Origin: a virus
Virus record (IMG/VR): IMGVR_UViG_3300046809_000507
Location: 4,910 to 68,909 of that record
Length of the DNA stretch: 64,000 nucleotides
Reading direction: 5' to 3' (one strand)
Positions 1 through 62,499 of this stretch are shown here, piece after piece (positions within the stretch are counted from its first letter, which is position 1; each line of letters starts with the position of its first letter). A model generated the notes under the pieces. The model was not told the origin of the DNA, did no database searches, and worked only from the letters and a program-made list of their open reading frames with translations. A program made the translations under genes and the position numbers.

Positions 1-1
1 G

Positions 2-214
2 CCGGTCCTTGAGGCAGCAGGCGTGGAAGGCGTCGACGCGACCACCCTGTCCAACCGGCTCCGCAAGCACGCGCCCGGCGCGAAGTCCGATCGCACTGAC
101 TGCCCTGAAGGGACCTACCTGCGGGGCTGGCGGCGAGACGACGTCGAGCGTGCCGCGGCGGGCCTCCTGGACCCGGCGCAGACCCGGCAAGACCCCGGCA
201 CAAGGGCGGCGTAG
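2..214 (+). CDS. C-terminal fragment of a probable TraB (FtsK/SpoIIIE-family) conjugative DNA translocase, winged-helix end; 5' truncated by the window
   Basis: Frame open from base 2 (PVLEAAGVEGVDATTLSNRLRKH...YLRGWRRDDVERA); overlaps a clt-like repeat array; ATPase domain not visible, so a DUF3631-type C-terminus is the alternative. Confidence 0.6.
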   Translation, partial: PVLEAAGVEGVDATTLSNRLRKHAPGAKSDRTDCPEGTYLRGWRRDDVERAAAGLLDPAQTRQDPGTRAA

Positions 215-299
215 CCCCGGCGCCGACCCGGCGGACGCTCAACCCATCGGCGCAGGTCGCCGGGTGTCCGCCGGGTCCGCGCCGGGCTCCCGCCGGGTC
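170..299. repeat. clt-like locus: GACCCGGC-type 8-bp repeats on an 11-bp grid, in two oppositely oriented arrays
   Basis: Forward copies at 170, 181 and 225 (exact) and 192, 214 (variants); inverted GCCGGGTC at 270 and 292 (exact) and 259, 281 (variants). Confidence 0.8.
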
Positions 300-349
300 A
301 CCACCACCCTATTGATCCATATATGTGAAGTTCTTGAAGAGGAGTCCTC

Positions 350-1123
350 ATGCCGCCCGCGAAGCGCAAGCCGGCCCGCCGGACCACCGCCGCGAAGGGC
401 CGGAAGCCCACCGCCCGCAAGCACCCGGCCAGCCGCGTGAAAGTCCCCCGCACCGGCCCGCTCCACGCCCAGATCGGGTCGCGCATGGTCCTGTTCGCCG
501 TCTCCCGCCTAGACACCCACGGCGACACCGTCCTGTCCCGCAAGAACGCCGCGATCCTCCGCGCCACCCACAAGGGCTGCCCCACCTGCAAGGGCAACGG
601 GCAGATCTTCACCAAGGGCAAGGACGGCTCCTTCACCGGCTCCAAGCCCTGCCCCGCTAAGCCCACCAAGCAGAAGGCCTCCCGCTGGGAGGTGTACAAG
701 GCCAGCCGGTTCGGCGCCGACAAGAACACCGGACTGATCGGCTGGGCCTGCCCCTGCGGCAAGAAGGAGAAGCCCCGCTTCCGAGACGCCCGCGCCGCCA
801 CCAAAGCCCTGCGCACCCACGAGCGGCAGAAGCACGGCGGCAACACCGTCGGCGGCGCCTGGTACGCCCAGACCGCCCAGGCCGCCACCGAACAGCCCGC
901 CCAGGCCGAGCCGACGCCGTCGAAGGTTGTCACCAACTCCGGCATGACCGACGGCAAGTGGGTCGGCCAGAACAAGGGCATGCCCGTCGGCAAGGCCATC
1001 GCCGCAGGCAAGTGCTGGAAGTGCTCTGGTGACGGAAAGATCCACGCCGTATGCGGCAACGAACAGCTCCTCGTCGTCTGCCCGGAATGCCGGGGCAGCG
1101 GCGCGGCGGCGAAGGCCGCCTGA
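350..1123 (+). CDS. Basic zinc-finger protein of the kind found in Streptomyces plasmids and AICEs (pRL2-8-like)
   Basis: RBS gaaggag; CPTCKGNG, CPCG, CWKCSGDG and CPECRGSG motifs. Confidence 0.7.
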   Translation: MPPAKRKPARRTTAAKGRKPTARKHPASRVKVPRTGPLHAQIGSRMVLFAVSRLDTHGDTVLSRKNAAILRATHKGCPTCKGNGQIFTKGKDGSFTGSKPCPAKPTKQKASRWEVYKASRFGADKNTGLIGWACPCGKKEKPRFRDARAATKALRTHERQKHGGNTVGGAWYAQTAQAATEQPAQAEPTPSKVVTNSGMTDGKWVGQNKGMPVGKAIAAGKCWKCSGDGKIHAVCGNEQLLVVCPECRGSGAAAKAA

Positions 1124-1632
1124 TGTCCGCGCCCGCCACGACCATGAAGGTCGCCGCCCCGGTCGTTCTCGACCTGGAGGCGCGGCTGGTCGAGGTGGGC
1201 CTGGTCATGGACGGACGCCTCGCCCTCGCCAACCTGTCCTTTGAGGTCGACACCGCCCACATCCCGGCAGCCGACCCCATCCCGGAGATCACCGCCCCGT
1301 TGCCGCTCACCCCCACCGCGGTCCCATGCCCGTACCCGACCCCGATCGCCGCCACCCTCCACCGGGCCCGCCTGCGCCTCGATGCGGCCGGCTGGTGCAC
1401 CGGGCAGCTGCGAGATGAGCAGGGCGCCCGATGCCTCATCGGTGTCATCCAGGCCGCAGCCTCGACCCGCGGCCAAGCCGACGACGCCTGCGTGCTGCTG
1501 CTGGAGGCGATCCGCCGCGACTTCCCGACCGCCGAGACCGTCCCCTCCTGGAACGACAACCAACGCGACCCCCGACTCCCCGCCCGCTACCTCGACCGCG
1601 CCGCCGAACTCGCCCACGCCCGCGGGCTATAG
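1123..1632 (+). CDS. DUF6197-like protein
   Basis: TGATG coupling; GWCTG...RCLIGVI...VPSWND motif. Confidence 0.7.
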   Translation: MSAPATTMKVAAPVVLDLEARLVEVGLVMDGRLALANLSFEVDTAHIPAADPIPEITAPLPLTPTAVPCPYPTPIAATLHRARLRLDAAGWCTGQLRDEQGARCLIGVIQAAASTRGQADDACVLLLEAIRRDFPTAETVPSWNDNQRDPRLPARYLDRAAELAHARGL

Positions 1633-1726
1633 GCGCCGGCCCCGATCCGATGAACCTCGCCCAGACCCGCCCGTAACCGCCGTCACCAGCGCTAACATCC
1701 CGACCCTGACCAGTCCTGGGGGGACC

Positions 1727-2083
1727 ATGACGAACAACCAGCCGCAGCCCACCATCCCGCCCATGCCCGGCCACGCGCCCAAGCCGACAACGAAGAGACG
1801 CACCGGCAGGATCATCGCCGCCATCACCGCCGGAGCCCTCGCCACCGGAGGCGGCATCTACTGGCTCACCCGGCCGTCCTACAACGACATCGTCAAGGAC
1901 TGCCAGCAGGCCCTCGTCGCCCAGTACAAGGCCGACGGGAAGGGCAAGCCGTCCGCCTGTAATGACGTGCACGACGACGACTACGACGCGCTCGTCCTCA
2001 ACGCGGCCATGGGCAACCTCGGCTGGCTCGACGGCGACGGCAACTTCGACAAGAACAAGATGCTCAACTCGACCCAGCCGTAG
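1727..2083 (+). CDS. Membrane-anchored hypothetical protein
   Basis: Pro/basic N-terminus, one TM helix, two Cys in the ectodomain. Confidence 0.7.
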   Translation: MTNNQPQPTIPPMPGHAPKPTTKRRTGRIIAAITAGALATGGGIYWLTRPSYNDIVKDCQQALVAQYKADGKGKPSACNDVHDDDYDALVLNAAMGNLGWLDGDGNFDKNKMLNSTQP

Positions 2084-2086
2084 CAG

Positions 2087-2284
2087 TCACCCGGAAACGC
2101 CAGGGCCCCGGTCATCGACCGGGGCCTTCGTCTTGCGTGGGACTGCGCGAGCGACCCAGTGCCGGCCGGCCGCGTCCGTGGGATCCGTTACCACTTCGGC
2201 ATCCAGTTGCGCGCAGAGCCGGTCCAACTCCCGCTGACATGACGCCCTGCTCTTCGTGCGGACCATGTACACCACGTCACCCAT
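2087..2284 (-). CDS. Small hypothetical protein
   Basis: 65-aa ORF converging on a hairpin at about 2103-2128. Confidence 0.55.
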   Translation of the reverse strand: MGDVVYMVRTKSRASCQRELDRLCAQLDAEVVTDPTDAAGRHWVARAVPRKTKAPVDDRGPGVSG

Positions 2285-2440
2285 GACGGCAGTGTGGCGC
2301 GCGTTCCGGGGTCGGGGGCGGGTTCACGGGAAGTGACCGCGCACGTCGACTCCTGTGCCATTGGCCTGCCTTGTCAACCCTCGGGTGCACAATTGGCTCA
2401 AGCGTCACTGCTTCCCCGTACCACCGCCGAGGAGCCTGCC

Positions 2441-3145
2441 GTGCACGACCACCCCGCCTTTGACGAATACGCCTGGCCGACCTGCGTGACTCCGAACTGT
2501 GGACGCCAACTCTGGGTCTCCGAGACCGGCCGGCAGTCGTGCCGACCCTGCGAAGACAAGACAGCCACTCGCATCGCCGAACTCCCGGCCCTGTTCCGGC
2601 GGATGGACACGACTGCCTCGCTGATGCGGGGCGCCCGGCGTCCTGGCGGCGCCAGTTCCGGCAGTAAGACCCCGCCGATCCCGCCCCGGCTCGAAGTCCT
2701 TTCCCTCGTCGGGCCGGGCGGTGTCGCTGCCCGGCTGCGGGACATCGAAGACTCGTGGCGGAAGGCGCTCGGTTGGACCGTCGCCCCGTGGCGCGGCTCC
2801 CCGGCTCAAGCGGTGCCGGACCACGCCCGATTCCTGGCGAACAACTTGCCGTGGGCGTGCGACGCCTACGACTCTGTCGGGCAGGACATCGACGACCTGC
2901 GGCGGTTGCACGCCGAGTGCGTGGCCCTCGTCAACGACGAACGCAGGCCGGGCCGCATCCAGGTCGGCAACTGCCCCGTCGACTCCGGCGACGGCCCGTG
3001 CTGGACTCCGCTGACCGCCACGGCCGCCACTCACCGCATCCGATGCGGCAGTTGCGGAACCCGATGGGAGACGCTGGGGGAGTGGCGGGAACTCCGGGCC
3101 GCACAAGAAGCCGTACTCGCCGCAGCGACAGGAGTCGCAGCATGA
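2441..3145 (+). CDS. Zinc-binding phage protein, candidate late-gene regulator
   Basis: RBS gaggag before GTG; N- and C-terminal CxxC pairs; lies upstream of the packaging module. Confidence 0.7.
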   Translation: MHDHPAFDEYAWPTCVTPNCGRQLWVSETGRQSCRPCEDKTATRIAELPALFRRMDTTASLMRGARRPGGASSGSKTPPIPPRLEVLSLVGPGGVAARLRDIEDSWRKALGWTVAPWRGSPAQAVPDHARFLANNLPWACDAYDSVGQDIDDLRRLHAECVALVNDERRPGRIQVGNCPVDSGDGPCWTPLTATAATHRIRCGSCGTRWETLGEWRELRAAQEAVLAAATGVAA

Positions 3146-3585
3146 GCGAGCAACCCGAGGACGAGCCTGAGCCGGTGACGGTCGAGATCACCGTCGACGC
3201 AAGCCGAGCGATCAACGCCCTGCAGAAGACGCAGGCGTCCCTCATGTTCGCCTTCCACCCCGACCTGCGCGAGGGCCCGGTGTGCCCCGCCGGGATCCGT
3301 CTCGTCAACGGCCGCCGAATGCAGTGCAAGGACATCCCCGACGCGACGTTCCTAGATGCCGTGCGACGAGCCCCCGGCACCTCGTCCGCGAACTGGCGCA
3401 TGCGCTGGAATGTTCACGCCATCCTGGAAGCCCAGCTCGGTCCCATCCCTGGGAATTTGTTCCTCGCCAAGGCCCGCAAACTCATCGCGGCTGGAAAGCT
3501 CGGAGGGTGCCCCTGTGGATGTCGAGGGGACTGGCATCTGCCCGAGGAATGCATCGGTGGGTCGACCTGCTGCCGGATCCCTTGA
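3142..3585 (+). CDS. Hypothetical phage protein with GCPCGCRGD motif
   Basis: ATGA overlap with the upstream gene; RBS ggag. Confidence 0.7.
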   Translation: MSEQPEDEPEPVTVEITVDASRAINALQKTQASLMFAFHPDLREGPVCPAGIRLVNGRRMQCKDIPDATFLDAVRRAPGTSSANWRMRWNVHAILEAQLGPIPGNLFLAKARKLIAAGKLGGCPCGCRGDWHLPEECIGGSTCCRIP

Positions 3586-3710
3586 TGCCGTTTCGGCAAC
3601 GCCACTTGCCGTTTGATCAGCGCTGAGCGTATGGTGTGCTCCAATCGATCTCGCTGTGTCTGGAGGGCCACCCCCGCAGGTGGCCCTTTCGCATGTTCGG
3701 GGGTGACCTG

Positions 3711-3953
3711 ATGCCCGAGCAGCTCATCACCGAAGACCTCGCGGCCTACTGGACCGGGCGACCCGCCACCACCATCCGCCGATGGGCAGCCGAAGGCCGA
3801 CTCACCCGCCATCAAGACCGGGCCCGACGGCGCAACGGCGTCCTCTACGACCTCGCCGAACTCCCCGAAGCCCAACGGGACCCCGACACCCGAGCGCTGA
3901 TCACACCCGGGCCGATGCCCGTCATCATCGAGACGGCCCTACTTGCCGCATAG
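3711..3953 (+). CDS. Small HTH DNA-binding protein
   Basis: GRPATTIRRWAAEGRL...LYDL, a MerR/Xis-like HTH. Confidence 0.7.
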   Translation: MPEQLITEDLAAYWTGRPATTIRRWAAEGRLTRHQDRARRRNGVLYDLAELPEAQRDPDTRALITPGPMPVIIETALLAA

Positions 3954-4066
3954 ACCCCTGCGCGGCGGTGGCGCAGGCGGGCCTTGAGCGCCACGCGTTC
4001 GGCCCCACCGTCCGCCCGGTCCTAGCGGGGGCCGGGCGGACGCACAACGCAAGGGAGGCGGTCCAC

Positions 4067-4396
4067 ATGGCGACAGTCGGCACCAGCACTCTTCGCTGCC
4101 CCGTCTGCGGCACCGACCTCGACGTGGCAATCTCGGCCAGCCCGTTTGAGCGCCGATCAGGCACGACGATGTACCTGTCGTTCGATCTGGCCCAGGTGCG
4201 TGACCATGTTGCCGAGCACGACCTTGGATCAGCCGTCGCCGTAGACCTGCCGCTGCCAACCTCGTCCGCCCTGGATGATCCGCCGGTGCAGTGCTGGCAC
4301 ATCGAGGCTGACAGCCCGTGCGACTGGGACATCTGCCGCCAGCCCGAGCGCCTTGTCGCTGGAGACTGCGGAACCGACCCTGCCCGTGGGATGTAG
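4067..4396 (+). CDS. Hypothetical zinc-ribbon protein
   Basis: RBS ggagg; CPVC motif. Confidence 0.55.
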   Translation: MATVGTSTLRCPVCGTDLDVAISASPFERRSGTTMYLSFDLAQVRDHVAEHDLGSAVAVDLPLPTSSALDDPPVQCWHIEADSPCDWDICRQPERLVAGDCGTDPARGM

Positions 4397-4421
4397 AAGG
4401 CGATGCGAGAGGGGGTGCGGC

Positions 4422-4649
4422 ATGCGACGTGCCATGGTCACCGCAGCCCTGACCGTGGGCCTGCTGCTGGGAAGTGCAGGGTGCACCAAGGACTGCCCCA
4501 CCCCGGCACCCACCACCCCCAGCAGGAGCCCCAGTACGGCACCGACCGCCACCAGCAGGCCGCCCTCACCAGCCCCCAGTAGGCAGCCTTCCCCTAGCCC
4601 TACAGCAGTGCCCACAGTGGAGCCCAGTAGCGCACTGAGCACGGCCTGA
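4422..4649 (+). CDS. Small Pro/Ser/Thr-rich putative lipoprotein
   Basis: MRR + hydrophobic stretch + GSAGC lipobox. Confidence 0.55.
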   Translation: MRRAMVTAALTVGLLLGSAGCTKDCPTPAPTTPSRSPSTAPTATSRPPSPAPSRQPSPSPTAVPTVEPSSALSTA

Positions 4650-4687
4650 GTGGACAGCAGGACCACGGCCCAGTCAGGGGGGTGGCC

Positions 4688-4984
4688 ATGGCCTACAGCA
4701 GGGGACGCTCGGGCACAGCGTGGCTGCGGGTGCAGGCACGGGTGTTCGCCGAGGAGACAGACTGCTGGCTCTGCGGTAGGTACGTCGACCAGTCCCTCGA
4801 TGGACGGACGCATCCGATGGGCAAGACGGCCGATCACGTGCGCGAGCTGTGGGAGGGCGGAGACCCGCTCGACCGGTCGAACCTGCGGCTGGCCCACAGG
4901 CGCTGCAACACGGCGAAGTCGAACCGGAGGCGCGCCCGGTCGCGGCCTAGGCCGGCGATGTCGGTGGATGCGACAAGCCTCTGA
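4688..4984 (+). CDS. Packaging-associated HNH endonuclease
   Basis: CWLC...ADHV...LAHRRCN, immediately upstream of terS. Confidence 0.9.
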   Translation: MAYSRGRSGTAWLRVQARVFAEETDCWLCGRYVDQSLDGRTHPMGKTADHVRELWEGGDPLDRSNLRLAHRRCNTAKSNRRRARSRPRPAMSVDATSL

Positions 4985-5165
4985 CCTGCGGACATGGCTC
5001 TGACCTGTGGCGATGCGGGATTCAATCTGGCCGTGATCATCGCGAGAGTGCAGGCCTGTAGTGCTCTGACCTGCGAAAACGTCAGAATGTCCGATTTTTT
5101 GATCACGCCCGTCCTGACCCCGCCCTCACCTAAAAGTCCTCTCCCCCCGCGAAAAAATCACAGGG
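4979..5165. other. Probable cos/packaging region
   Basis: Intergenic between HNH and terS; three CTCTGACCTG repeats (4979, 4998, 5064); T-tract, C-run and A-tract. Confidence 0.55.
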
Positions 5166-5169: not shown

Positions 5170-5559
5170 GTGATCATGGAAGACCCGCTCGATCTCGGTT
5201 CCCGAGGTTCTCGGCTCTGGCGGGAGATGACGGCCTCTGGCTCTCTGACTCCGGCGCACTTGGTGCTTCTGGAGGAGGCCTGCCGTCTCGCTGACCGGCT
5301 CGATTGGCTCAACTCCATTCTCCAGCGGGTCTGTTCGCCGGTCAAGGCGGATGACGAAGACGGCGAGGGTGAATCTCCGGCTATCGGGCCTCTTCTCGCG
5401 GAAGCTCGGCAGCAGCAGACGGCTCTTCGGGGACTTGTGGCGGAGATTCGGCAGGCTCAGAAGGGTTCGGTGCCGGATTCGGTTCCGAGGGCGGGGGGTT
5501 CTGGTGTCTCGGACCTCTCGGCGCGGATCGCTGCAAGGAAGCGCGAAGCCCAGGGTTGA
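5170..5559 (+). CDS. terS: Terminase small subunit
   Basis: LGSRGSRLWREMT...LEEACRLADRLD...PLLAEARQQ; position before terL. Confidence 0.85.
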   Translation: MIMEDPLDLGSRGSRLWREMTASGSLTPAHLVLLEEACRLADRLDWLNSILQRVCSPVKADDEDGEGESPAIGPLLAEARQQQTALRGLVAEIRQAQKGSVPDSVPRAGGSGVSDLSARIAARKREAQG

Positions 5560-7033
5560 GTGCGTCCCGCCGGCCGACTTCTCGCTGGGCGAGGAGGCGG
5601 TGGAGCTCGCGCGGCGGGCCGGCCTGGTCTTGGACCCGTGGCAGGCGGATTCGATCGAGCTGATGCTGTCGGTGCGCGGTGACGGCAAATGGAGCTGCTT
5701 CGAGTACGGCGAGATCGTCGCCCGGCAGAACGGCAAGGGCGCAATCCTCGAAGCTCGCGCGCTGGCGGGCTTGTTCCTGCTGGACGAGCGGCTGATCATG
5801 TGGTCGGCGCACGAGTACAAGACGGCGATGGAAGGGTTCCGCCGGTTCAAGGCGCTGCTGAAGCAGCTGGGCGAGCCGCTGTCGGAAAACATGATCGACG
5901 TCGATGGGGTGCTCATCAAGGTCATCAACACGAACGGCGAAGAGAGCTTCGAACGCCTCGACACCGGCGCCCGCGTGAAGTTCATCGCGAGGAGCAAGGG
6001 GAGTGGCCGCGGGTTCTCCGGCGACTGCAACATCATCGACGAGGCGTTCGCGTACACGCTGCTCCAGCAGGACGCGCTGATGCCGACCATGTCGGCCCGC
6101 CCGAACCCGCAGATCGTGTACACGAGTTCTCCGCCGCTGGACGGTGATGACGGCTCGGGCGAGGTGATGTTCGCGCTGCACGCGCGAGCGGAAGCCGGCG
6201 GTGACGACAGCTTCGGCTGGCGGGACTGGGGTGTCGCGGGCGACCTCGACCACCTCGACGACATCGACCTCGACGACCGGCGTCTGTGGGCGGCTTCGAA
6301 TCCGGCGCTCGGCTATCGGCTGTCGGAGGAGGCGGTCCTGCGGGAGCGCCGCTCGATGGGCGACGCCGGTTTCGCGCGGGAGCGGCTCGGGGTGTGGCCG
6401 CGCAAGAGCCAGGGCAATGCGGTCATCGATACGGCGGCCTGGCTGGCGCTGGTGGACGCGTCCTCGGAGCGGGACCGCGAGCACGGTGTGGCGATCGGCT
6501 TGGACATCAGTCCGCTGCGGGACTACGCGGCGGTGCAGGTGTACGGGCTGCGGTCGGACGGGCTCGGGCATACGCAGCTGGCGGACTATCGGCCGGGCAC
6601 GAAGTGGCTGATCCCGCGATTGGTCGAGCTGCGGGAGGCGCTGGGCCCGATCTCGATCGCTATGGGTCGCGGGACGTTCGCGTTCCTGGAGACGGCACTC
6701 GATGCGGCCGACTTCCACCGGCCGGAGGATCCGGACGCTCCGGAGCCCGGTGATCTGGCAGTGACGAACGCGGTCGACATGGCCGCGGCTGCCGGGCAGT
6801 TGCTGGAGGCGGTCCGCGAGGAGTCGTTCCGGGTGCTGCCGAACCGGCACCTCGATGTGGCGGTCGCCTCGGCGAAGACGAAACAGACGGGCGAGACGAT
6901 CGCCTGGACGGTGAAGGGCGTGGACAGTGACATCAGCCCGCTTGTGGCGATGACGCTGGCCCGCTGGTCCTACATGTCCCGCTCCCATCTGCTCCAGGGC
7001 AGCCAGTACGACGTTCTGCAATCGGTGTTCTGA
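5504..7033 (+). CDS. terL: Terminase large subunit (start approximate)
   Basis: Walker A ARQNGKG, Walker B IIDEA, ASNPALG, nuclease motifs GLDIS and DISPLVA. Confidence 0.95.
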   Translation: MSRTSRRGSLQGSAKPRVECVPPADFSLGEEAVELARRAGLVLDPWQADSIELMLSVRGDGKWSCFEYGEIVARQNGKGAILEARALAGLFLLDERLIMWSAHEYKTAMEGFRRFKALLKQLGEPLSENMIDVDGVLIKVINTNGEESFERLDTGARVKFIARSKGSGRGFSGDCNIIDEAFAYTLLQQDALMPTMSARPNPQIVYTSSPPLDGDDGSGEVMFALHARAEAGGDDSFGWRDWGVAGDLDHLDDIDLDDRRLWAASNPALGYRLSEEAVLRERRSMGDAGFARERLGVWPRKSQGNAVIDTAAWLALVDASSERDREHGVAIGLDISPLRDYAAVQVYGLRSDGLGHTQLADYRPGTKWLIPRLVELREALGPISIAMGRGTFAFLETALDAADFHRPEDPDAPEPGDLAVTNAVDMAAAAGQLLEAVREESFRVLPNRHLDVAVASAKTKQTGETIAWTVKGVDSDISPLVAMTLARWSYMSRSHLLQGSQYDVLQSVF

Positions 7034-7048: not shown

Positions 7049-8293
7049 ATGCGCAATCCCTTTCGCGGGATGCGGAAGCGTGACAGCGAGAGGCGGGCGC
7101 TCGATTCGTCGTCCGTGTCGTGGCCCTCTGATCCGCTGGCCTCACCGGCGGCCCTGAACGAAGACGGCGCGCTGCGCCTGGGGCCGGTGCTCGCGGCGGG
7201 CCGGCTGCTGGCGGCGACAATCTCCGGGATGCCGCTGTGTGTGTACCGGCAGGCGGGGGATACGAAGCAGTCGCTTCCGTTGCCGAGTCTGTTCACGCAG
7301 CCGTGCGCTCAAGGCACCCTGCACGACTGGGTGTTCCGGGCGGTGACGTCGCTCGCGTACCGCGGCAACGCGGTCGGGGTGGTGACGTCCCGGGACTATC
7401 TGGAGTATCCGACCGAGATCGAGTGGCTGGACCCGGCATTCGTGCTGTGCGAGGACCGGATGGCGTCGATCGGGGAGCCAGGCTCGTTCACGAACCCCAA
7501 GTTCTCGTACCTGGGGGAGCGGCTGCCCAACGAGGACGTCGTGCACATCCCCTGGTTCCAGCTTCCGGGCCGGGTGTGGGGGCTCAGTCCGATCGGCGCC
7601 TACGCGGTGACTGTGTCGACAGGGCTGGCGGCGCAGCAGTTCTCTGACGACTGGTTCCGCAGCGGCGGGGTACCGCCGGGCCGTTTCAAGAACAACACGC
7701 AGACGCTGGACCAGAAGGACGCCAACATCATCAAGCGGCGTCTGGTGCAGGCGATTCGGTCGCACGAGCCGATCGTGTACGGCAAGGACTGGGACTACGA
7801 GCCGACCACTGTGTCGCCGAACGAGGCCCAGTTCGTGCAGACGATGCGCCTGACCGCATCGCAGATCGCGGCGATCTACGGAATTCCGCCGGAGATGATC
7901 GGCGGCGAGACTGGCGGGTCGATGTCGTACAGCTCGCCCGAGCAGCGGCAGATCGAACTCGTGCAGTTCAGCCTGCTGCCGTGGCTGGCCCTTCTGGAGT
8001 CGCACCTGTCGACGCTGCTTCCCCGCGGCCAGTACGTGAAGTTCGACCCCGACGTCCTTATCCGTGCCGACTTGGCGACCCGGTTCGAAGTCCACGAGAA
8101 GAAGCGCCTCATCGGCTGGGACAACATCGATGGGCTGCGCGCCCTGGAGGACGAGCCGCCGCTTCCGAACGGCGCCGGATCCGACTACACGCCGCTGCCG
8201 ATCGCTGCCGGCGCCACGATCTCGCCTCCTGCTATTCGCAGTGATGACCCGGGGCCGTTGCGCCTCATCCGAAAGGACGGCACCGATGGTTGA
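7049..8293 (+). CDS. HK97-family portal protein
   Basis: GLSPI, AQFVQTMR, IYGIPPEMIG motifs; follows terL. Confidence 0.95.
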   Translation: MRNPFRGMRKRDSERRALDSSSVSWPSDPLASPAALNEDGALRLGPVLAAGRLLAATISGMPLCVYRQAGDTKQSLPLPSLFTQPCAQGTLHDWVFRAVTSLAYRGNAVGVVTSRDYLEYPTEIEWLDPAFVLCEDRMASIGEPGSFTNPKFSYLGERLPNEDVVHIPWFQLPGRVWGLSPIGAYAVTVSTGLAAQQFSDDWFRSGGVPPGRFKNNTQTLDQKDANIIKRRLVQAIRSHEPIVYGKDWDYEPTTVSPNEAQFVQTMRLTASQIAAIYGIPPEMIGGETGGSMSYSSPEQRQIELVQFSLLPWLALLESHLSTLLPRGQYVKFDPDVLIRADLATRFEVHEKKRLIGWDNIDGLRALEDEPPLPNGAGSDYTPLPIAAGATISPPAIRSDDPGPLRLIRKDGTDG

Positions 8294-9332
8294 CCGGCAC
8301 CAGCTGCGTGATTCGCCGGAGCGGCGTTCGATCGCAGCGGACGGTTTTGAGATCCGCAGCACGGGCGACGGCCTGGCTCTCACCGGCTACGCGAGCGTGT
8401 TCGACAACGGCTACCAAGTGCTTGGCGGGCCGCCTTACGGCTGGACCGAGCGTGTCGACAGGCGGGCGTTCGATGTGACGCTCGGCGCCAAGCCCGACCT
8501 GCACCTGCTCATCAACCACGAGGGCATGCCTCTCGCGCGAACGAAGAGCGGCACGTTGCGCCTGTCCACTGACTCCAAGGGCCTCCTCGTCGAGGCCGAC
8601 CTGGACCGCCGCGACCCGGACGTGCAGCGCCTGGAAACCAAGATGGAACGCGGCGACATGGACGAGATGTCCTTCGCGTTCCGCGTGAAGGCCGACCAGT
8701 GGTCCGACGACGACACCGAACGCACCCTGACCGAGGTCTCCCTCCACAAGGGCGACGTCAGCGTCGTCAATTTCGGCGCCAACCCGGCAACTTCGGCTCA
8801 GCTGAACAGTATGAGCGAGGCGCTGGACCTGCTCACGAGCATCGACCCCGACCAGGCCATGGCCGAGCTCCGCTCCGGCGATACTCGGGCGATCGAGCGG
8901 CTTGCCGCAGCCCGCGAGAGCCTTGCCGTGCTACACCGCGGACTGACCCCGTCTGTCAAGCGCACCGGCATGTCGGTAGCCGAGGCGCTGGCCGCACAAG
9001 GAGGCGAGCCCCGCAGCGTCACCCTTGCTGCCGGGATCCCGGCCCACTCGACGACCGTCACGGACATGCCCCTCGACCGGCGGGCGGCGTTGTCCGCGGC
9101 CCCCGGCGATCAGGTGGTGCTGCGCTACATGCACGCCTGGGTCGACCCGAGCGGCAACGCGGACGACAAGGCCAGCTACTGGGGCGCCCACCACGAGGGC
9201 CGCATTGGCGCGCCCGCCCACCTGGCGGCGGTGCGCTACCACCTGTCGATGCTGGAGCACTCCGACGTCCCCGAGGACCAGCGGGCCGCCATCGAGCGGC
9301 ATCTGCGCCGACACCTCGACGAAGCCGAATAG
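8286..9332 (+). CDS. HK97-family prohead protease with a His-rich C-terminal extension
   Basis: GYASVF, LINH, GLLVEA, MSFAF, SVVNFGANPAT. Confidence 0.92.
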   Translation: MVDRHQLRDSPERRSIAADGFEIRSTGDGLALTGYASVFDNGYQVLGGPPYGWTERVDRRAFDVTLGAKPDLHLLINHEGMPLARTKSGTLRLSTDSKGLLVEADLDRRDPDVQRLETKMERGDMDEMSFAFRVKADQWSDDDTERTLTEVSLHKGDVSVVNFGANPATSAQLNSMSEALDLLTSIDPDQAMAELRSGDTRAIERLAAARESLAVLHRGLTPSVKRTGMSVAEALAAQGGEPRSVTLAAGIPAHSTTVTDMPLDRRAALSAAPGDQVVLRYMHAWVDPSGNADDKASYWGAHHEGRIGAPAHLAAVRYHLSMLEHSDVPEDQRAAIERHLRRHLDEAE

Positions 9333-9438: not shown

Positions 9439-9471
9439 ATGCCCATTTGCCAACGAAAGGCAGGCTCGCTC

Positions 9472-10863
9472 ATGGACGAGCGACTGAAGCGGCTCATTGT
9501 TCGACGCGAGCAGGCCGCGAAGGACCGCGAGACTCTGATCTCGAAGCGGAAGGCCATCACCGACCTCGCCGAGGAGGAGGCCCGTGATGACCTCCTGCCC
9601 GAGGAGGACGCCGAGTTCCGCGAGCTGACCGCCCAGGTCAAGTCGAAGGACGAGGAGCTCCGCAGCTACGACGAGCGGATCGGCGAACTGTCGGAAGAGG
9701 GCGAGCGCGGCCGGCAGGTCACTGCCGGCGCCCTCGCGGTGAAGCGGGCTGCGGCCCGCGCCGAGTCCGTCACCGAGGCCCGCACCTACGAGCGCGGCAA
9801 CGGCCGCTCGTACCTGCAGGACCTGGCCCGCGTCCAGCTCAACATGGACGCGGACGGCGGCGCCCGCGAACGGCTCCAGCGCCACGCACAGGACGTGTCG
9901 ACGGGGCAGGAGTACCGCGACCTCAACCGCACGGACGGCAACGGCGGCTACGCCATTCCGCCGCTGTGGCTGATGAGCCAGTACGTCGAACTGGCCCGCG
10001 CGGGACGCGCCTACGCGAACGTCGTCAACAACCAGCCGCTGCCCGGCGGCACCGACTCCATCAACATCCCGAAGGTCGCCACCGGCACCGCCGCCGCCAT
10101 TCAGACGGCGGACAATGCGGCGGTGCAGGAGACAGATCTGACCGACACGTTCATCAACGCGCCGGTCCGCACCGTCGCCGGCCAGCAGGATGTCGCCATC
10201 CAGCTCCTCGACCAGTCGCCGGTCTCCTTCGACGAGGTCATCTTCCGGGACCTGGTCGCCGACTACGCGACGAAGACCGACCTCCAGGTCATCTCTGGCT
10301 CCGGATCGTCGGGCCAGGTGACGGGTGTCCGTGCCACTTCGGGTATCACCACGGTGACGTACACGGACGCCACGCCGACGATCGCGAAGCTCTACTCGAA
10401 GATCGCCGACGCGGTGCAGCGGGTCCACACCCTCCGCTTCATGGCCCCCACGGTCATCGTGATGCACCCGCGCCGGTGGGCGTACCTGCTCGCCGCCTCG
10501 GACTCCAACGGGCGCCCCCTGGTCGTCCCGGATGTGGGGAACCCGCAGAACGCGGTCGCCACGCTCGGCACGGTCGGTTCGCAGCAGGTCGTCGGCCAGA
10601 TGCACGGCCTGCCCGTCGTCACCGACCCGTCGATGCCGACCACGCTGGGTGCGGGCACGAACGAGGACGTGATCCACGTCCTGAGGGCGTCGGACATCCT
10701 GCTGTACGAGTCGGGCATCCGCTCCCGCGTGCTGCCCGATGTCGGCTCCGGCAACCTCACGGTTCGCCTGCAGGTGTACGGCTACCTCGCGTTCACGGCC
10801 GCCCGCTACCCGGCGAGCGTCGTGGAGATCGGCGGCACCGGCCTGGTCAGCCCGACGTTCTGA
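9472..10863 (+). CDS. Major capsid protein (HK97 fold, with N-terminal delta domain)
   Basis: Coiled-coil N-terminus, GGYAIPP, VMHPRRW, GLPVVTD. Confidence 0.95.
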   Translation: MDERLKRLIVRREQAAKDRETLISKRKAITDLAEEEARDDLLPEEDAEFRELTAQVKSKDEELRSYDERIGELSEEGERGRQVTAGALAVKRAAARAESVTEARTYERGNGRSYLQDLARVQLNMDADGGARERLQRHAQDVSTGQEYRDLNRTDGNGGYAIPPLWLMSQYVELARAGRAYANVVNNQPLPGGTDSINIPKVATGTAAAIQTADNAAVQETDLTDTFINAPVRTVAGQQDVAIQLLDQSPVSFDEVIFRDLVADYATKTDLQVISGSGSSGQVTGVRATSGITTVTYTDATPTIAKLYSKIADAVQRVHTLRFMAPTVIVMHPRRWAYLLAASDSNGRPLVVPDVGNPQNAVATLGTVGSQQVVGQMHGLPVVTDPSMPTTLGAGTNEDVIHVLRASDILLYESGIRSRVLPDVGSGNLTVRLQVYGYLAFTAARYPASVVEIGGTGLVSPTF

Positions 10864-17798: not shown

Positions 17799-17833
17799 CC
17801 GTGACCGACCACCCGTGAGTGAGGGGAGGCGTC

Positions 17834-20800
17834 ATGGCCAGCTCCAGCATCGTCTACCGGCTCATCGCCCACGATTCGGCGAGTCGCACGTTCAACTCCG
17901 TCGGACGTTCGGCGAGCGGCACGGAACGGACGCTCGCGAAGCTCGGCGCTACCGCTGTGAAGGCGGGGGCGGCGTTGGCTACGGGTCTCGCCGTGGGCCT
18001 GGCCAAGGGCGCCAAGGACGCGATGGCGTTCCAGGCGGAGATGACCCGCATCTCGACGCAGGCCGGCGGCACGGCGAAGGATGTGAAAGTCCTCAGTGAC
18101 GCGGTCCTGAAGCTGGGCACGTCCACTCAGCAGGGTCCGCAGCATCTCGCCGAGTCGCTGTACCACCTCAAGTCGGTGGGCATGGACAACGTGCAGGCGA
18201 TGAAGGCGCTGAAGCAGAGCGCCGACCTGGCTGCGGTCGGTCACGCCAACTTGGAGGAGACGACCAACGCGCTTGCGGGCGCCTGGCGTACCGGCATCAA
18301 GGGCGCCACGAGTTTCCATGAGGCCGTGTCGACGGTGAACGCGATCATCGGCGCGGGCAACATGTCGATGGATCAGTTCAACGCGGCTATCGGCACCGGC
18401 ATCCTGCCGTCGGCGAAGACGTTCGGTCTGTCGATGAAGCAGGTCGGTGCCGCGCTCGCGCTGATGACGGACGAAGGTATCGACTCCGCGTCCGCGGCGA
18501 CGCGGCTGCGCATGTCCTTCAGCCTGCTGGGCGCCCCGTCCGCTGCGGCTGAGAAGCAGTTGAAGAAGATCCACCTGACCGGGCTTCAGATGGCCGATGC
18601 GATGCGTGGCAAGGACGGCCTGATCGGCGCCCTGACGCTCCTGAAGGACCACCTCGACAAGAGCAGCCTGTCCGCGTCGAAGCAGTCCCAGCTGCTGTCG
18701 CACGCGTTCGGCGGCGGCCGGTCCTCCAGCGGCATCCTGATGATGCTCAACAACCTGGACGTCCTCAAGAAGAAGCAAGACCAGATCAACCGCAGCACCG
18801 GCAAATTCGACGACGCGGTCAAGCAGCAGCGGAAGACCGCCGAAGCCCAATGGCATCTGCTCACCTCGAATCTCGAAGTGATGAGCATCCGGGTCGGCAC
18901 GAAAGTCCTGCCGCCCGTCACGAGCTTCGTGCACTTCCTCGCCACCACCGCCATGCCTGCGGCTGCGGGCTTCGGCAAGGTCATGCGCAACCTGATCCCG
19001 GTCGATGCGATCAAGCGAGGTGTCGGCGAGGCCAAGTCGACGATCGGCGGATTCCTCTCCGGCCTCACGGGCGGCAAGTCGCCGACGAGCATGCTCGGCG
19101 ACTTCATGGACGGCCTCACAGGGGCCGGGTCGAAGAAGGCTCCGAGCGTGCCCACGTCCACGGGTCCGTCGCCGATGCTGACGGTGCCGCAGGCGCCGCG
19201 CCTGCTGGCGAAGCCGCAGAAGGCCACAACGCCGATGCTCAAGGCACCTTCGGTGCCTCGGCTGTTGGCGCGCCCGAAGTCCCTCGCGGCGCCTGCGCTG
19301 TTCAAGCAGCCCTCGTCACCCGGGCTGCTTGCGATGCCCAAGGCGGTCAAGCCGCCCAAGTCTGCTGCCGAGAAGATCGGCGCCCAGATCCACGACGCCA
19401 TCAGTGGCGGCTTCAAAGACATGGACTGGGGCAACCTCGGCAGCGTCCTGGGGAAGGGGCTCGGCGACGCGATCGGCTGGGTCGCAAAGCACACCGCCGA
19501 CTTCACCAAGAAGATCGCCAAAATCCTCGCAGGCATCGACTTTGTGCAGATCGGCAAGAGCTTCGGCGCGTCGGCGATCCCGCTCGCGATCGGCTTCATC
19601 GCCAGCCTGTTCGACCCGCTGTTCTCCCTGGACTTCTGGAAGAAGCACTGGCTCGACACGATCATCGCGGTCTTGTCGGTCATCCCGATCGGACGTGTCG
19701 CCGGAGTCCTCGGCAAGGTCTTCGAACACCTCCCGTTCCTGAAGATGTTCGAGCCGCTTCTCCGCGGCGTCGGCAAGCTCGGCGGCTGGCTGGAGAAGGC
19801 CGCCAGCAAGGCCATGAAGTTCTTCGGTGAAAGCCTGTGGAAGGGAATCGCCAAAGTCTTCCCCGAGGCGACCGCGACTCTGGAGCGCGAGGCCGGACTT
19901 TTCACCACGCGCATCGGCTCGTGGGGCCTGGACCTCATGGCGAAGGGCAAGGGCGCGATCCTCTGGCTCGGCCGGGGCATCCGCGACGGTGCCGGGTTCG
20001 TCATCTCGAAGATCGGAGAGGTCGCCGCCCTGATCGTGAAGCCCTTCGCGAAGGCCGGCGGCTGGCTGATCGGCAAGGGCCGTGTTCTGCTGACCGGCTT
20101 CAAGGACGGCATCGTCACCGGCGCCAAGGGGATCGGTTCCTTCCTGTGGCGCCGGGCGGGCAAACCGGCCGTGGACGCCTTCAAGGGCGCCGGGTCGTGG
20201 CTGCGGTCTAAGGGCAGCAGTCTGGTCTCCGGCTTCAAGTCGGGGTCGGTGTCGGCGGCGAAGGGGATCGCCGGGTTCACGAACCGGTGGGTCGTCCGGC
20301 CTGTTGTCGACACTTTCAAGGGCGCGGGCTCGTGGCTGTGGTCCAAGGGCAGCAGCCTCGTGTCGGGCTTCAAGTCCGGGTCCATCTCGGCCGCCAAGGG
20401 CATCGCAGGCTGGACCAACCGCACCGTCATCAAGCCCGTGACCGGCGCGTTCAAGAGTGCCGCTTCCTGGCTGAAGAGCGCAGGCGGGCACCTCCTCTCC
20501 GGTCTGAAGGACGGCATTTGGAGCGCGATCAAGGGCATCGGATCGTGGATCAAAAAGAACATGATCGACCCGATCGTGAATTCGGTGAAGCACTGGTTCG
20601 GGATCAAGAGCCCCTCCCGCGTCTTCATGAGCATCGGCGGTCACCTGGTCGGCGGCCTCATGAAGGGCATGGCCAAGACATCGGGCACGGCCATCGCGAA
20701 GAAGATCTTCGGGGATCTTCCGCACGCCCTCAGTCGGATTGTCCACAAGGGCTTGGTCTCGGTCTCCAAGCTCCCCGGCAAGGCTCTCAAGGCCCTCGGC

Positions 20801-27845: not shown

Positions 27846-27847
27846 CC

Positions 27848-33623: not shown

Positions 33624-33631
33624 GTGTTCGA
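33616..33631. promoter_or_regulatory. Degenerate LexA (SOS) box over the DUF6233 start codon
   Basis: TCGTTC-ACGT-GTTCGA versus the actinobacterial consensus TCGAAC-N4-GTTCGA. Confidence 0.5.
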
Positions 33632-36489: not shown

Positions 36490-36509
36490 GCCAGGCCAAG
36501 GCGGCGGGA

Positions 36510-36880
36510 CTGGGGGAGCGGCTGGGGAGTGAGGCTCCTCGGGGAGTGCCCGGGGAGCCTCGGAAAGCCTAGTCGGGTCAACTCGGCACCACTGAGGTCT
36601 ACTCAGTACCACCAGTTCAGAGGGGTAGTGGCGACCCGACAGGTCAAAGGCCGAGGACCGGCACTCCGTTATATAGGTTCATCGCCAACTGATATGCCAT
36701 CCCGCCCACCAGGCCCGGCAAGGCCACCGGCACCTCGGCCTCAGACGTTCGCGTCAACGGATTCTTGCAGCTCAAGTGCCGTATCCAGCACCTCAGGTTG
36801 CCATAGCTCACCGGCCTGACGGGGGAGCAGGCCACCGCCCGAAACCCCTGAAACAGACACCTGGGGAGCGGCTGGGGAGG
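36510..36880. other. attP-like region with integrase arm-type repeats
   Basis: GGGGAG-N5-GGGGAG pairs at 36513, 36541 and 36863 (first and last identical over 17 bp) flanking an AT-rich stretch at about 36665-36697. Confidence 0.7.
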
Positions 36881-60641: not shown

Positions 60642-61151
60642 CTACGGGGTGGATCGCGTGCGAACGAAGTGCCCGAACGCTCGGTACCGGTAGACGTACT
60701 GCTGGCGGATGAGCATCTCGATGGCGTGCGTCGTGGCCCCAACGCCAATTTCGACGGCTGCCGCTAGGTCTCGGGGTGCGGGCAACTTGTGCTTGGCGGG
60801 CCATCTCCCGCTGTCGATCTCCGCTCGAATCAACTCAGCTAGCCGCACCGCCTTTGTGCGACCAGCGTCGGCAAGCGAGGGCCAGTGCATGCCATCGAGG
60901 GAGATGCGGTCGAAGTTCTCCGCGAGGTTGTAGCGGGGGCGCTCTGTTCGGATGGCGAGCGTCTCGGCCGCCGCCGCTTCGGCGCTGCCGGGGAACCATT
61001 CGACCGTGAATGAGGCTGCTTCTTTCGCCCACCGGCTTTGAGCGTGAGCCGTCTTGCGGTCCTTCAGATGGCTCGTGATGCCGATGTATAGCGGGCGATC
61101 CTCGGGGTCCAGGTAGCGGTACAGCGCGGTGTGCCTGGGGGGTGCGCTCAC
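60642..61151 (-). CDS. GIY-YIG nuclease fused to a GntR-type winged helix
   Basis: ALYRY...LYIGIT...R..H...E..AI..E.P.YN, then LIRAEIDSGRWP...G.FV. Confidence 0.82.
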   Translation of the reverse strand: MSAPPRHTALYRYLDPEDRPLYIGITSHLKDRKTAHAQSRWAKEAASFTVEWFPGSAEAAAAETLAIRTERPRYNLAENFDRISLDGMHWPSLADAGRTKAVRLAELIRAEIDSGRWPAKHKLPAPRDLAAAVEIGVGATTHAIEMLIRQQYVYRYRAFGHFVRTRSTP

Positions 61152-61187: not shown

Positions 61188-61239
61188 CTTCTCCGTAGAG
61201 CGGTGCTTCTCTTGGAGTCTGCCCGCTTCTCCGTAGAAG
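61188..61239. promoter_or_regulatory. Two Kor-type operators (CTTCTCCGTAGA)
   Basis: Copies at 61188 and 61226, between the divergent genes. Confidence 0.7.
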
Positions 61240-61316: not shown

Positions 61317-62066
61317 TTGCCTAGCAAGCCGCAGCGCGAGCCGCGCCGCTACCAAGAAATCGCGGACGAGTTGCGCGCGAAGATCGACAGTGGCGAGCTG
61401 CCGCCAGGCGCCACCGTCCCCGGCGAGAACACGCTCATGAAGACGCATGACGTGGCCCGATCCACCGCGCGCCAAGCCATCGATGTGCTCCGCGCCGAGG
61501 GGCTCATCGAGAGCCGCCAGGGTGTCGGAATCACAGTTCGCGAATTCCGCCCGATCAGACGGCCGGCCGTCCAGCGCCTCTCTGCTGAGGTCTGGCACGC
61601 CGGGCGGTCCATCTGGGATGTAGACCTGGAGGACCGCCCTCGTCGTGTAGAGGTGGACGTCGAAGAGGTCGACGCGCCCGAGCATGTCGCCCGCCTCCTC
61701 GGCGTTGACGAGCGGATGTGCCGTCGAAGTCGCCGCTTCTATGTCGACGGCAAGCTGGTTCAGACGGCTGTCTCCCACCTGCCGATGTCGCTGGCGCAGG
61801 GCACGCGCATCATGGAGCCAGACACCGGCCCTGGGGGTATGTACGCCCGCCTGGAAGAGGTCGGCCACAAGCCGGCGCGCTTCAAGGAAGAGGTGCGCAG
61901 CAGGATGCCCACTCCGCAGGAGGCGGCCGACCTTCAGTTGGGTCCAGGGACCCCGGTGTTCCAGATCATGCGCATTGCGGCGGACGAGGATGACCGAGTC
62001 GTAGAGGTCAACGAGATGATCCTTGACGGCTCCAACTACATCCTGGAGTACGTCTTCTCCTCCTGA
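61317..62066 (+). CDS. KorSA/TraR-like GntR repressor with UTRA domain
   Basis: RBS aaggagg; RYQEIADELR...DTGPGGMYARLEEVG...R.P..QE...L. Confidence 0.88.
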   Translation: MPSKPQREPRRYQEIADELRAKIDSGELPPGATVPGENTLMKTHDVARSTARQAIDVLRAEGLIESRQGVGITVREFRPIRRPAVQRLSAEVWHAGRSIWDVDLEDRPRRVEVDVEEVDAPEHVARLLGVDERMCRRSRRFYVDGKLVQTAVSHLPMSLAQGTRIMEPDTGPGGMYARLEEVGHKPARFKEEVRSRMPTPQEAADLQLGPGTPVFQIMRIAADEDDRVVEVNEMILDGSNYILEYVFSS

Positions 62067-62160: not shown

Positions 62161-62214
62161 CTTCTACGGAGAAGTGGGCTTACATGGTGTCAGCGGGATG
62201 GTTCTCCGAAGAAG
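62161..62214. promoter_or_regulatory. Two further Kor-type operators upstream of the putative transfer operon
   Basis: CTTCTACGGAGAAG at 62161 (exact reverse complement of the 61226 copy); GTTCTCCGAAGAAG at 62201. Confidence 0.7.
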
Positions 62215-62253: not shown

Positions 62254-62499
62254 GTGTGCCACGAAGTGCCCGCCGTCGAGGACGCACCCGCTGAGCCCAT
62301 GTTGCGGGCCAAGCAGGTAGCGGAGCGGCTGGACGTCCACGTCTCGACCGTGTACCGCCTCGCGGACTCTGGTGCGCTTCGGGCCCACCGGATCGGCGAA
62401 GGCCGACTCCGCAAGCGAGGTCTCCGCATCCCCGCCTCGGCTGTCGCCGCGTACCTCAACGACTCGCTGATCTCTCAGCCCACCTCGGAGGTGGCGTGA
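62254..62499 (+). CDS. Xis-like HTH protein
   Basis: KQVAERLDVHVSTVYRL..SG.L.A.RIG. Confidence 0.8.
   Translation: MCHEVPAVEDAPAEPMLRAKQVAERLDVHVSTVYRLADSGALRAHRIGEGRLRKRGLRIPASAVAAYLNDSLISQPTSEVA

Follow-up and report, generated by a model that had tools for sequence, protein, structure and literature searches.

A predicted plasmid-type DNA transfer module in a temperate Streptomyces siphovirus and its uncultured relatives

The traB-like gene, its repeat array and the surrounding operon

The DNA analysed here, referred to as the window, is a stretch of 64,000 nucleotides (nt) that corresponds to bases 4910-68909 of one 68,909-bp contig filed as a virus record (IMG/VR IMGVR_UViG_3300046809_000507). 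The record is a temperate siphovirus of Streptomyces with the gene order HNH-TerL...tail...lysin-attP-Int-repressor-early genes, and its GC content is 64-73% along the whole window. This work deals with a group of genes and repeats, distributed between the two ends of the contig, that includes a gene for a TraB-like ATPase, a repeat array resembling the clt locus of Streptomyces plasmids, a gene for a protein similar to SpdB2 and a GntR-type repressor gene. These features are listed below in window coordinates unless the contig is named (ORF, open reading frame; aa, amino acids; HTH, helix-turn-helix; TM, transmembrane).

Contig 1642-3060, + strand: SpdB2-like ORF, 472 aa; its stop overlaps the traB start
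2..214, + strand: 3' end (last 70 codons) of the traB-like gene; whole gene at contig 3057..5123, 688 aa
170..299: clt-like array, five direct and then four inverted CCCGGC cores in 11-bp phase
305..345, + strand: conserved AT-rich motif (CCCTATTGATCCATATATGTGAAG...) and ribosome-binding site ahead of the Zn257 gene
350..1123, + strand: Zn257, 257 aa, with a basic N-terminus and three CxxC...CxxC zinc-ribbon-like units
1051..1632, + strand: DUF6197 protein (Pfam PF19698, E 1.1e-17)
1727..2083, + strand: small protein with one TM-like segment (hydropathy scan)
60642..61151, - strand, start approximate: small divergent gene for a GIY-YIG domain and a GntR-type HTH (Pfam; phrog_16880)
61188 and 61226 (61188..61238), + strand: two copies of the operator-like word CTTCTCCGTAGA(G/A) in the divergent promoter region
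61317..62066, + strand: GntR/UTRA (HutC-type) repressor of the KorSA/TraR/KorA class (Pfam GntR E 2.5e-17, UTRA E 5.4e-24)
62162..62174, - strand: third, inverted operator-like copy, with the terminator-like hairpin that follows the GntR gene on one side and the HTH_17 gene on the other
62254..62499, + strand: excisionase-family HTH_17 protein (Pfam HTH_17 E 3.6e-11; TIGR01764 42.5 bits, cut-off 28.8)
62496-62801, 62801-62962 and 63125-63778, + strand: small ORFs of the operon
From 63829, running off the contig end, + strand: c46-type gene

The ORF that enters the window at position 2 is the end of a gene whose product has a hydrophobic N-terminus, an FtsK-type ATPase core and a predicted C-terminal winged helix. 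The 688-aa protein matches phrog_12531 ('FtsK/SpoIIIE-like protein') with E 1e-90 over residues 152-575, and the Walker A (GAMGAGKT) and Walker B (IDEF) motifs are invariant in an alignment of 18 sequences, formed by the protein and 17 orthologues of 51-93% identity. Ala/Gly-rich hydrophobic stretches are kept among the TraB orthologues at about aa 54-70, 120-145 and 155-172. Identity to a plasmid 'DNA translocase FtsK' is 35% over 417 aa (E 3e-72); no named Tra family was matched in NCBIfam, and a profile search of the PDB with the TraB alignment returned FtsK as the sole solved relative, with a weak match (E 0.004-0.009).

The last 99 aa of the protein were modelled with AlphaFold2 from a 10-sequence alignment, at a mean confidence (pLDDT) of 88.2 and with the topology H1-b1-H2-H3-b2-b3-H4. 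The top rows of a Foldseek search of the PDB were mostly winged-helix domains, none of them at E <= 0.001, and the best rows of VIA-align (Z 5.0-5.9) were almost all winged-helix domains as well; no FtsK-gamma chain was found among the VIA-align matches listed, and a sequence profile of the domain gave 0 PDB matches at E <= 10. The initial annotation, made from the window alone, had described the ORF at 2..214 as ending like a winged helix and had suspected an FtsK/SpoIIIE-type ATPase in frame upstream of it. The second of these is confirmed by the complete ORF, and the first holds at the level of the fold (H-b-H-H-b-b), because the model is confident and its structural neighbours are winged-helix domains.

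The array that the initial annotation had reported over the end of this ORF, as 8-bp repeats, is also present. Its CCCGGC cores begin at 172, 183, 194, 216 and 227 on the + strand and at 259, 270, 281 and 292 on the - strand, always 11 or 22 bp apart, a phasing that would set all the words on one face of the helix. Five of the nine units are exact GACCCGGC, three on the + strand followed by two on the - strand, and the first 45 nt lie within traB, where they encode the tail DPAQTRQDPG. The word GACCCGGC occurs 20 times in the 64 kb, for an expectation of 10.05 +/- 2.9, and 0 of 100 shuffles reached 20 copies. Among 6,870 sliding 210-nt windows of the contig, the array has the top count of a single 7-mer (7), tied solely by a CGGCGGC run at about 26352. 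Three further exact copies of GACCCGGC, on the + strand at 33724, 33739 and 33787 and out of 11-bp phase, lie within a DUF6233 gene; this smaller cluster (33724-33794) could be a secondary docking site or a chance occurrence in a GC-rich coding region.

The ORF that precedes traB encodes a protein whose N-terminus is highly charged and coiled-coil-like (about aa 30-100) and whose core is hydrophobic (about aa 115-230); the same architecture is given for SpdB2 by Thoma et al. (PMC4447253). Neither Pfam nor PHROGs has a family for it, and GenBank phages gave no match; three of eight relatives weakly match Pfam DUF2637 (best E 0.002). Its clearest similarities are with plasmid proteins, namely the DUF2637 protein directly upstream of traB in pFP1 (BLASTP E 3e-16, 30% over 174 aa) and a protein of pSacid_B21-078-1 with 58% identity over 85% of the length (tblastn). 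The gene of the latter belongs to a rightward operon divergent from GntR genes; its replicon encodes ParA and a MobF relaxase and lacks virion genes. A gene of the spd type, which had been proposed as something to look for beside the ATPase, is thus found directly in front of it. Three small genes lie before the SpdB2-like ORF, c597, c903 and c1413, whose products have 1, 2 and 2 TM-like segments in a hydropathy scan. The second of them (contig 899-1215) is a presence/absence variant, being replaced by 8 letters in contigs of two public sequencing runs, and it was found by tblastn in just 2 of the first 16 related loci described below (L004 and L011).

At the far end of the window, the GntR/UTRA regulator is 26% identical (E 6e-16) to the product of the GntR gene beside the pFP1 transfer operon. 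The operator word has 4 matches at <=2 mismatches in the 64 kb, where 1.16 are expected, and three of them fall within 1 kb around the GntR gene. The HTH_17 gene opens a rightward operon, and everything from it to the contig end, as well as from the contig start to traB, is on the + strand; the order at the contig start is c46, c597, c903, c1413, SpdB2-like gene, traB. The KorSA-like repressor, operators and Xis-like gene transcribed in one direction that had been noted at this end are therefore all accounted for. Genes with a GntR-type HTH number three in the window (34924-35361 and 60642-61151 on the - strand, 61317-62066 on the + strand), one of them fused to GIY-YIG, and the two short ones have phrog_9285 and phrog_10724 in common with the full-length repressor.

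Related loci and the place of the module in the phage genome

Searches with the TraB-like protein gave 349 matches, and the best 120 of these 349, with 51-93% identity and about 690 aa, come from Streptomyces chromosomes and metagenomes, under the names 'hypothetical' or 'FtsK/SpoIIIE'. For comparison, 39 loci were taken from IMG/VR and 13 from chromosomes (11 of the family); the chromosomal loci were obtained with an alignment-based scan of genome contigs, a scan with the single protein having confirmed 0 of 37 stretches. Two loci were left out (L010, with a truncated gene, and L018, a 551-nt contig) and two with 32% identity (L016 and L017) were kept as an outgroup, so that 48 loci remain. 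Among them, the SpdB2-like ORF is just upstream of traB in 45, c597 is upstream in 46, and Zn257 is downstream in 47, at 2.1-2.34 kb from the traB start. DUF6197 was found by tblastn in 17/48. TerL and/or a portal of one of three types is present in the 10-kb downstream flank of 14/48 loci, and TerL was detected with phrog_9 in 6 of 10 additional records searched whole; the four misses may have other terminase families. Since terminase and portal families vary among the relatives, the module is retained while structural genes are swapped. In a quick unrooted tree, 30 sampled TraB proteins of the family form one group (SH-aLRT 100), apart from the TraB of pFP1-type plasmids, the related protein of phage Jay2Jay and L016/L017. 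An 812-aa ORF of pSacid_B21-078-1 was not accepted as a TraB, given its very long branch in this tree.

The relatives also bear on whether the two ends of the contig belong together. No exact terminal overlap of at least 10 nt was found. The last 222 nt of the contig (window 63779-64000), a second copy of the small c46-type gene with its upstream motif, match contig 23-241 at 97.7% (two substitutions and a 3-nt indel), with the last 127 nt identical. The contig's first 22 nt do not carry on from its end, and hence the record alone is no proof of a circle. Of 24 public runs listed, none is recorded as RNA, and the contigs of the four best DNA runs are too short to span the junction. In those four runs, contigs covering the start copy agree with the end copy in their letter at contig position 114, and its 3-nt insertion is found in three of the runs; the two end copies may thus be an assembly split of variants. 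The circularity that the initial annotation had put forward for checking thus did not come out as a clean circle. Its proposal that the two ends are halves of one module is upheld by the related loci. Homologues of the ORF at 62496 lie upstream of c597 and traB in L002 and L003, at distances that fit a direct join of the contig ends, and L003 also has GntR and HTH_17 genes upstream of c597 and traB. Altogether, GntR and HTH_17 genes are found 3.4-8.2 kb upstream of traB and on the same strand in eight relatives (L003, L006, L008, L033, L035, L036, L037 and L041).

In every locus of the family with downstream sequence, a word is repeated across or just past the traB stop, direct copies coming first and inverted ones after. 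The spacing is about 11 bp in the loci whose sequence was inspected, and the register to the traB stop is conserved. The word differs between loci and goes with the class of the TraB C-terminus: proteins ending in '...DCPEG.YLRGW...LLDPAQTRQ.PG..AA' go with GACCCGGC; those in '...PQVRGW...LIDPSKARLQAA' with CCCGTCT, often alternating with GCCCGGCTA; those in '...PVPIGD.DG..NPRGYKLEAL' with CTGCTCG; those in '...VTLG....NPRG(Y/F)KLEAL' with CTGCTCA; and those in '...VRGW...APS' with CCCGTCC or CCCGTCT. The outgroup loci have GGCAGGCC and pFP1-type plasmids have CTCTAC-type words. Most phage loci have an element CGCAGGT(C/A) in or beside the array, as do the outgroup loci and the two pFP1-type plasmids; L004 and L006 lack it. 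Heads of the '...APS' class are spread over three distinct groups of the core tree (L037; L040 and L061; L060 and L062), which hints that head and array may be exchanged between phages as a cassette.

After the array, the motif at 305..345 is kept in L002, L004, L006, L007, L009, L014 and L015. The sequence ATTGATCCAYRT also precedes both c46-type genes, and the AT-rich motif (A/G)TTGATCCA(T/C)(A/G)T...GTGAA is found at window 311-322 and 63801-63812 and at contig 45-56; it may be a promoter or operator specific to the module. Zn257 has a weak match to DnaJ_CXXCXGXG (E 3.6e-5) and is homologous to a 258-aa ORF that follows traB and the repeats in pFP1 (E 1e-7; common HKGCPxCKGxG...DG..GS..C). 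The product of 1727..2083 has no Pfam or PHROG family match.

From Zn257 and DUF6197 the window passes into intact phage late genes, from HNH and TerL through the lysin, which extend to about 29.9 kb; this succession of plasmid-type genes (or genes of the type found in AICEs, the integrative and conjugative elements of actinomycetes) and late genes is as first annotated. Genes for terminase, portal, protease, major capsid protein, tape measure protein, tail, lysis, integrase and repressor are all in one replicon. The map was made from scans with PHROGs (91 ORFs) and Pfam (45 ORFs), which are the basis of the rows below unless a specific match is given.

4682-4984, + strand: HNH endonuclease (phrog_338, E 8e-21), which opens the late genes
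5351-7033, + strand: terminase large subunit, TerL (phrog_9, E 2.6e-67)
7049-8293: portal
Inside ORF 8064-9332: protease
9439-10863: major capsid protein, with connector and tail genes next
17819-22522: tape measure protein, with tail proteins after
27812-28741: endolysin
30594-31592: XerC/D-like tyrosine recombinase, the second recombinase of the phage
ORF 31868-32779: Ku-like DNA-end-binding domain, adjoining the XerC/D-like gene
33288-33932, - strand: DUF6233 gene
36490..36740: predicted attP region with CTGGGGAG-type short repeats (from the map of prophage G003, see below)
36741-38159, - strand: phage tyrosine integrase, 472 aa (phrog_1, E 1e-49; Pfam Phage_integrase)
38786-39307, - strand: repressor-like gene
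Rightward early genes: anti-repressor-like, DUF5131, exonuclease, Gp3-like domain, HNH genes, endonuclease VII
51185-52300: replication initiator (Rep)
53668-54639: C5 methyltransferase, with a LuxR-type gene also in this part of the map
54752-55186: T7 gp5.9 RecBCD-inhibitor domain at the C-terminus (Pfam E 3.6e-12)
58620-59450, - strand: Ant

Three related genomes establish how the module is placed with respect to integration. G001 (62.6 kb, TraB 82% identical) and G009 (61.9 kb) have direct terminal repeats and are 100% complete according to CheckV, and G001 carries traB, TerL, portal and two recombinases. The third is a 60.65-kb prophage in the complete chromosome G003, with exact 32-bp direct repeats (GTGCGCGGCGTCATGCAGAACTCCGACTTCCG) as its boundaries at 8,312,268 and 8,372,922. 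From attL onwards it carries an integrase homologue (44%), two leftward genes, including a homologue of the repressor (56%), the early genes, c597, TraB (50%) in the middle of the prophage, Zn257, TerS/TerL, portal and tail genes, the XerC/D-like gene (86%; attR lies about 5 kb beyond it), DUF6233, an HTH gene and a homologue of window 36184-36489. This is the map of the window opened between 36489 and 36741, and attP was placed there for that reason.

The initial annotation had seen no separate integrase or Rep for the module and had suggested a survey for synteny of terL, int and traB. The three genes do co-occur in complete phage genomes, and no att-like repeat, int or rep flanks the module, the sole long repeat being the c46-type gene, of which each contig end has a copy. 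Integrase and traB are about 29 kb apart, and att repeats were found in G003 alone, where they enclose the whole prophage; neither G001 nor G003, both carriers of the module, has a homologue of the Rep gene (51185-52300). A nested AICE with int, rep and att ends of its own is not supported on these grounds, and the module is accordingly assigned to the phage.

Other observations on the genome can be added. A late-region megablast against 50,697 GenBank phage records found no close backbone relative, the capsid gene alone matching Mycobacterium phages at 73%, while the first 7 kb gave 0 matches among phages and one 600-nt match among plasmids. ParA or ParB was not matched in the PHROGs and Pfam scans. 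The gp5.9-like gene of the early region would be a counter-defence gene. A Gp3-like domain is encoded at 46740-47672 (Pfam E 1.3e-38), though both recombinases of the phage are of the tyrosine type; Gp3 is the recombination directionality factor of phiC31-type serine integrases. AGCGCTG occurs six times in 210 nt at about 53172-53390, between post-initiator genes and the methyltransferase gene, possibly as origin iterons, and there are also 6-copy clusters of GCCGGCC (about 47512) and CCGGCCG (about 44492).

Comparison with known transfer systems

In the accounts given for Streptomyces plasmids, a single FtsK-like Tra protein assembles into a hexameric membrane pore and pumps unprocessed double-stranded plasmid DNA to the recipient, after reading 8-bp clt repeats by helix 3 of a C-terminal winged helix, and SpdB2 and other Spd proteins spread the plasmid DNA through cross-walls (PMC4447253, PMC3583192). 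Unregulated traB is described as toxic in plasmids, where it forms a kil-kor pair with a GntR repressor (PMC4447253). The plasmids pSVH1 and pIJ101 resemble the phage in having an FtsK-like pump whose C-terminal domain reads DNA (in the phage a predicted function), clt repeats of 8 bp, a repressor of the GntR type, and SpdB2 (N-terminal coiled coil and four TM helices) plus small Spd proteins, as reported in the same source (PMC4447253). They differ in being plasmids, the host replicon being a phage here, and the likeness is one of description. The clt word of pSVH1 is GACCCGGA.

The clt of pWTY27 has been mapped to 16 bp inside traA and 159 bp downstream, with 7-bp direct repeats and inverted repeats (PMC3583192). 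Both systems have a single FtsK-like Tra protein (688 aa in the phage and likewise in pWTY27, whose TraA is described with N-terminal TM segments, PMC3583192) and a clt that starts inside the 3' end of the tra gene and continues downstream, with direct repeats of 7-8 bp and inverted repeats. pWTY27 is a 14-kb theta plasmid, in contrast to a tailed phage of 69 kb, and its words are TGACACC and CCCGCCC; the two are likened by description.

A similar gene order was found in pFP1-type plasmids (pFP1, NC_006912.1; the NBC_00285 plasmid, NZ_CP108056.1; pSacid_B21-078-1, NZ_CP122370.1), which have, as the phage does, GntR, small ORFs, a DUF2637/SpdB2-like protein of about 480 aa, FtsK/TraB, the array and a zinc-ribbon protein (about 258 aa). 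Their array also has the CGCAGGTC element of the phage loci. However, their TraB has 863 aa and is 35% identical over the core, and their other genes include those of ParA and a MobF relaxase but none for virions.

A precedent on the phage side is pZL12/phiZL12 (Zhong et al., 2010), which is cited as producing phage particles and as conjugating by means of a major tra gene and adjacent genes (PMC3583192, PMC4487206). It is described as a plasmid of roughly 90 kb with ParAB, whereas members of the present family carry an integrase and attP and occur in integrated form. A further precedent is a published comment on SpdB2 in phiC31 and VWB. AICEs such as pSAM2 and SLP1 are integrative and move double-stranded DNA with one FtsK-like Tra protein, and their accounts also include GntR (KorSA), Xis and Int (PMC2440964, PMC3218068). 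AICEs are nevertheless only 9-24 kb long, keep int, xis, rep and tra together and lack virion genes, unlike the phage, whose att sites enclose it as a whole. The AICE survey of Ghinet et al. is described as having left out loci with int between rep and tra, or without one of the three (PMC3218068).

Phage relatives of the TraB protein in GenBank were found in 89 records, all of them genomes of 120-135 kb, with 35-41% identity over aa 64-592. These lytic Streptomyces phages (Jay2Jay, Mildred21, NootNoot and others) thus carry an FtsK-type ATPase too, but in Jay2Jay, the sole such record inspected, the gene has no array and no SpdB2-like or GntR neighbour and lies in a stretch of tRNA genes, beside TerL/HNH. 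An FtsK/SpoIIIE-like gene is listed, without being analysed, in recent phage papers, whose authors suggest replication or developmental roles (PMC11536984, PMC13587820). Among the papers searched for TraB/clt in Streptomyces phages and prophages, no account of such a module in an integrative phage was found. The phage is of a known kind, one carrying a Streptomyces-type system for transfer of double-stranded DNA, with pZL12 as precedent. Its novelty lies in being integrative, in having the GntR-Spd-TraB-clt set complete, and in the conservation of this set as a core module in a widespread family of uncultured phages.

Possible roles of the module

We favour, with moderate confidence, the reading that a plasmid-type module for transfer and spread of double-stranded DNA is a conserved part of the phage genome, located between early and late genes, and that it is used for spread without particles. 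The GntR repressor would keep the operon off, in the manner of a kil-kor pair, and derepression would follow infection or induction, at a time when the phage genome is present as a free double-stranded circle. Hexamers of TraB would then dock on the array through their winged helices and drive the phage DNA across septal cross-walls or into hyphae in contact, by a passage that the SpdB2-like protein and the small membrane proteins would form; the mirror arrangement of the array could load pumps in either direction. The arriving genome would integrate by means of Int and attP or replicate lytically, and the outcome would be virion-free spread through the multicellular mycelium, besides spread by particles.

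Several points weigh against this. With respect to the pump itself, the Pfam FtsK_SpoIIIE model (PF01580) gives 16.9 bits, below its cut-off of 24, the closest plasmid TraB is about 36% identical, and a Kyte-Doolittle scan (19-aa window, threshold 1.5) called no N-terminal TM segment in TraB. No Foldseek match of the C-terminal model reaches E <= 0.001, and VIA-align Z values of 5-5.9 are such as common folds give. Over the window as a whole, the operator count has weak significance, as 5 of 100 shuffles reach 4 matches. The classes of word and C-terminus follow the tree, so that shared ancestry could explain much of their match, and in the GACCCGGC and CCCGTCT classes the repeats themselves encode part of the protein tail. 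Jay2Jay has a related FtsK-like gene and neither array nor Spd-like gene, from which it follows that a non-transfer role exists for such phage ATPases. Finally, to our knowledge, how circular double-stranded DNA passes through a hexameric pump is unsolved even for plasmids.

A broader proposal, to which we give slightly less than even confidence, is that a whole widespread lineage of temperate Streptomyces phages is bimodal, being at the same time virus and AICE-like conjugative element. Between hyphae and across cross-walls the genome would travel as naked double-stranded DNA by its own TraB/clt/Spd machinery, and between mycelia as virions. Head and array would diversify together, perhaps exchanged as a cassette, which would prevent cross-mobilisation between co-resident phages and plasmids.

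The pump could instead serve the cycle of the phage within one mycelium (clearing or segregation of DNA at septa, prespore loading, or handling of concatemers), with the array as a loading site similar to the FtsK-orienting polar sequences (KOPS). FtsK/SpoIIIE relatives do this for chromosomes, a related FtsK-like gene is found in the 89 records of 120-135-kb Streptomyces phages, beside TerL/HNH in the one inspected, and the replication and developmental functions suggested by authors (PMC11536984, PMC13587820) point the same way. Yet the temperate family integrates into the chromosome and would for that reason not need a segregation device of its own, and the SpdB2-like, small membrane, GntR and zinc-ribbon proteins are encoded in the order of conjugative plasmids, while the Jay2Jay gene is accompanied neither by these nor by an array. 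We regard this explanation as unlikely.

That the module is the remnant of a plasmid or AICE that landed in the phage, a cargo functional for itself alone or decaying, seems to us very improbable. Its genes are of plasmid type, with 58% identity between the SpdB2-like protein and its plasmid homologue, and an excisionase-family gene adjoins the GntR gene as in AICEs. Against this, the flanks hold no integrase, Rep or att-like repeat, and the Rep gene of the window is not shared with G001 and G003; order and position between early and late genes recur in the 48 loci with differing terminase and portal families; and the ORFs are intact, the catalytic motifs invariant and the family a single group in the quick tree. 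Slimmest of all is the chance that the module serves conflict, by excluding incoming DNA, by killing or arresting neighbours (a pock-like kil effect) or by mobilising host DNA, since the reported toxicity of unregulated plasmid traB and its kil-kor pairing with a GntR repressor (PMC4447253) and the weak PADLOC matches (mad8, E 1.4e-5; mad1, E 4.5e-6) would be in its favour, but the latter amount to generic P-loop/HTH similarity, and a cis-acting array on phage DNA, matched to the C-terminus of the pump, points to the phage genome as the substrate.

If particle-free spread is indeed the function of the module, its significance would lie in the biology of the host. Streptomyces grows as a septate, multicellular mycelium, and the TraB/clt/Spd set of the phage offers a concrete mechanism for reaching beyond the compartment into which the DNA was injected. 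The pairs of reading head and repeat word in about 50 loci would represent a natural data set for the DNA-recognition code of the TraB winged helix. Such prophages would blur the line between phages and conjugative elements in an integrative form, the studied precedent, pZL12, being a plasmid, and would have been missed by AICE surveys of the kind described as dropping loci with int far from tra (PMC3218068). As AICEs do, these phages could then also move host DNA.

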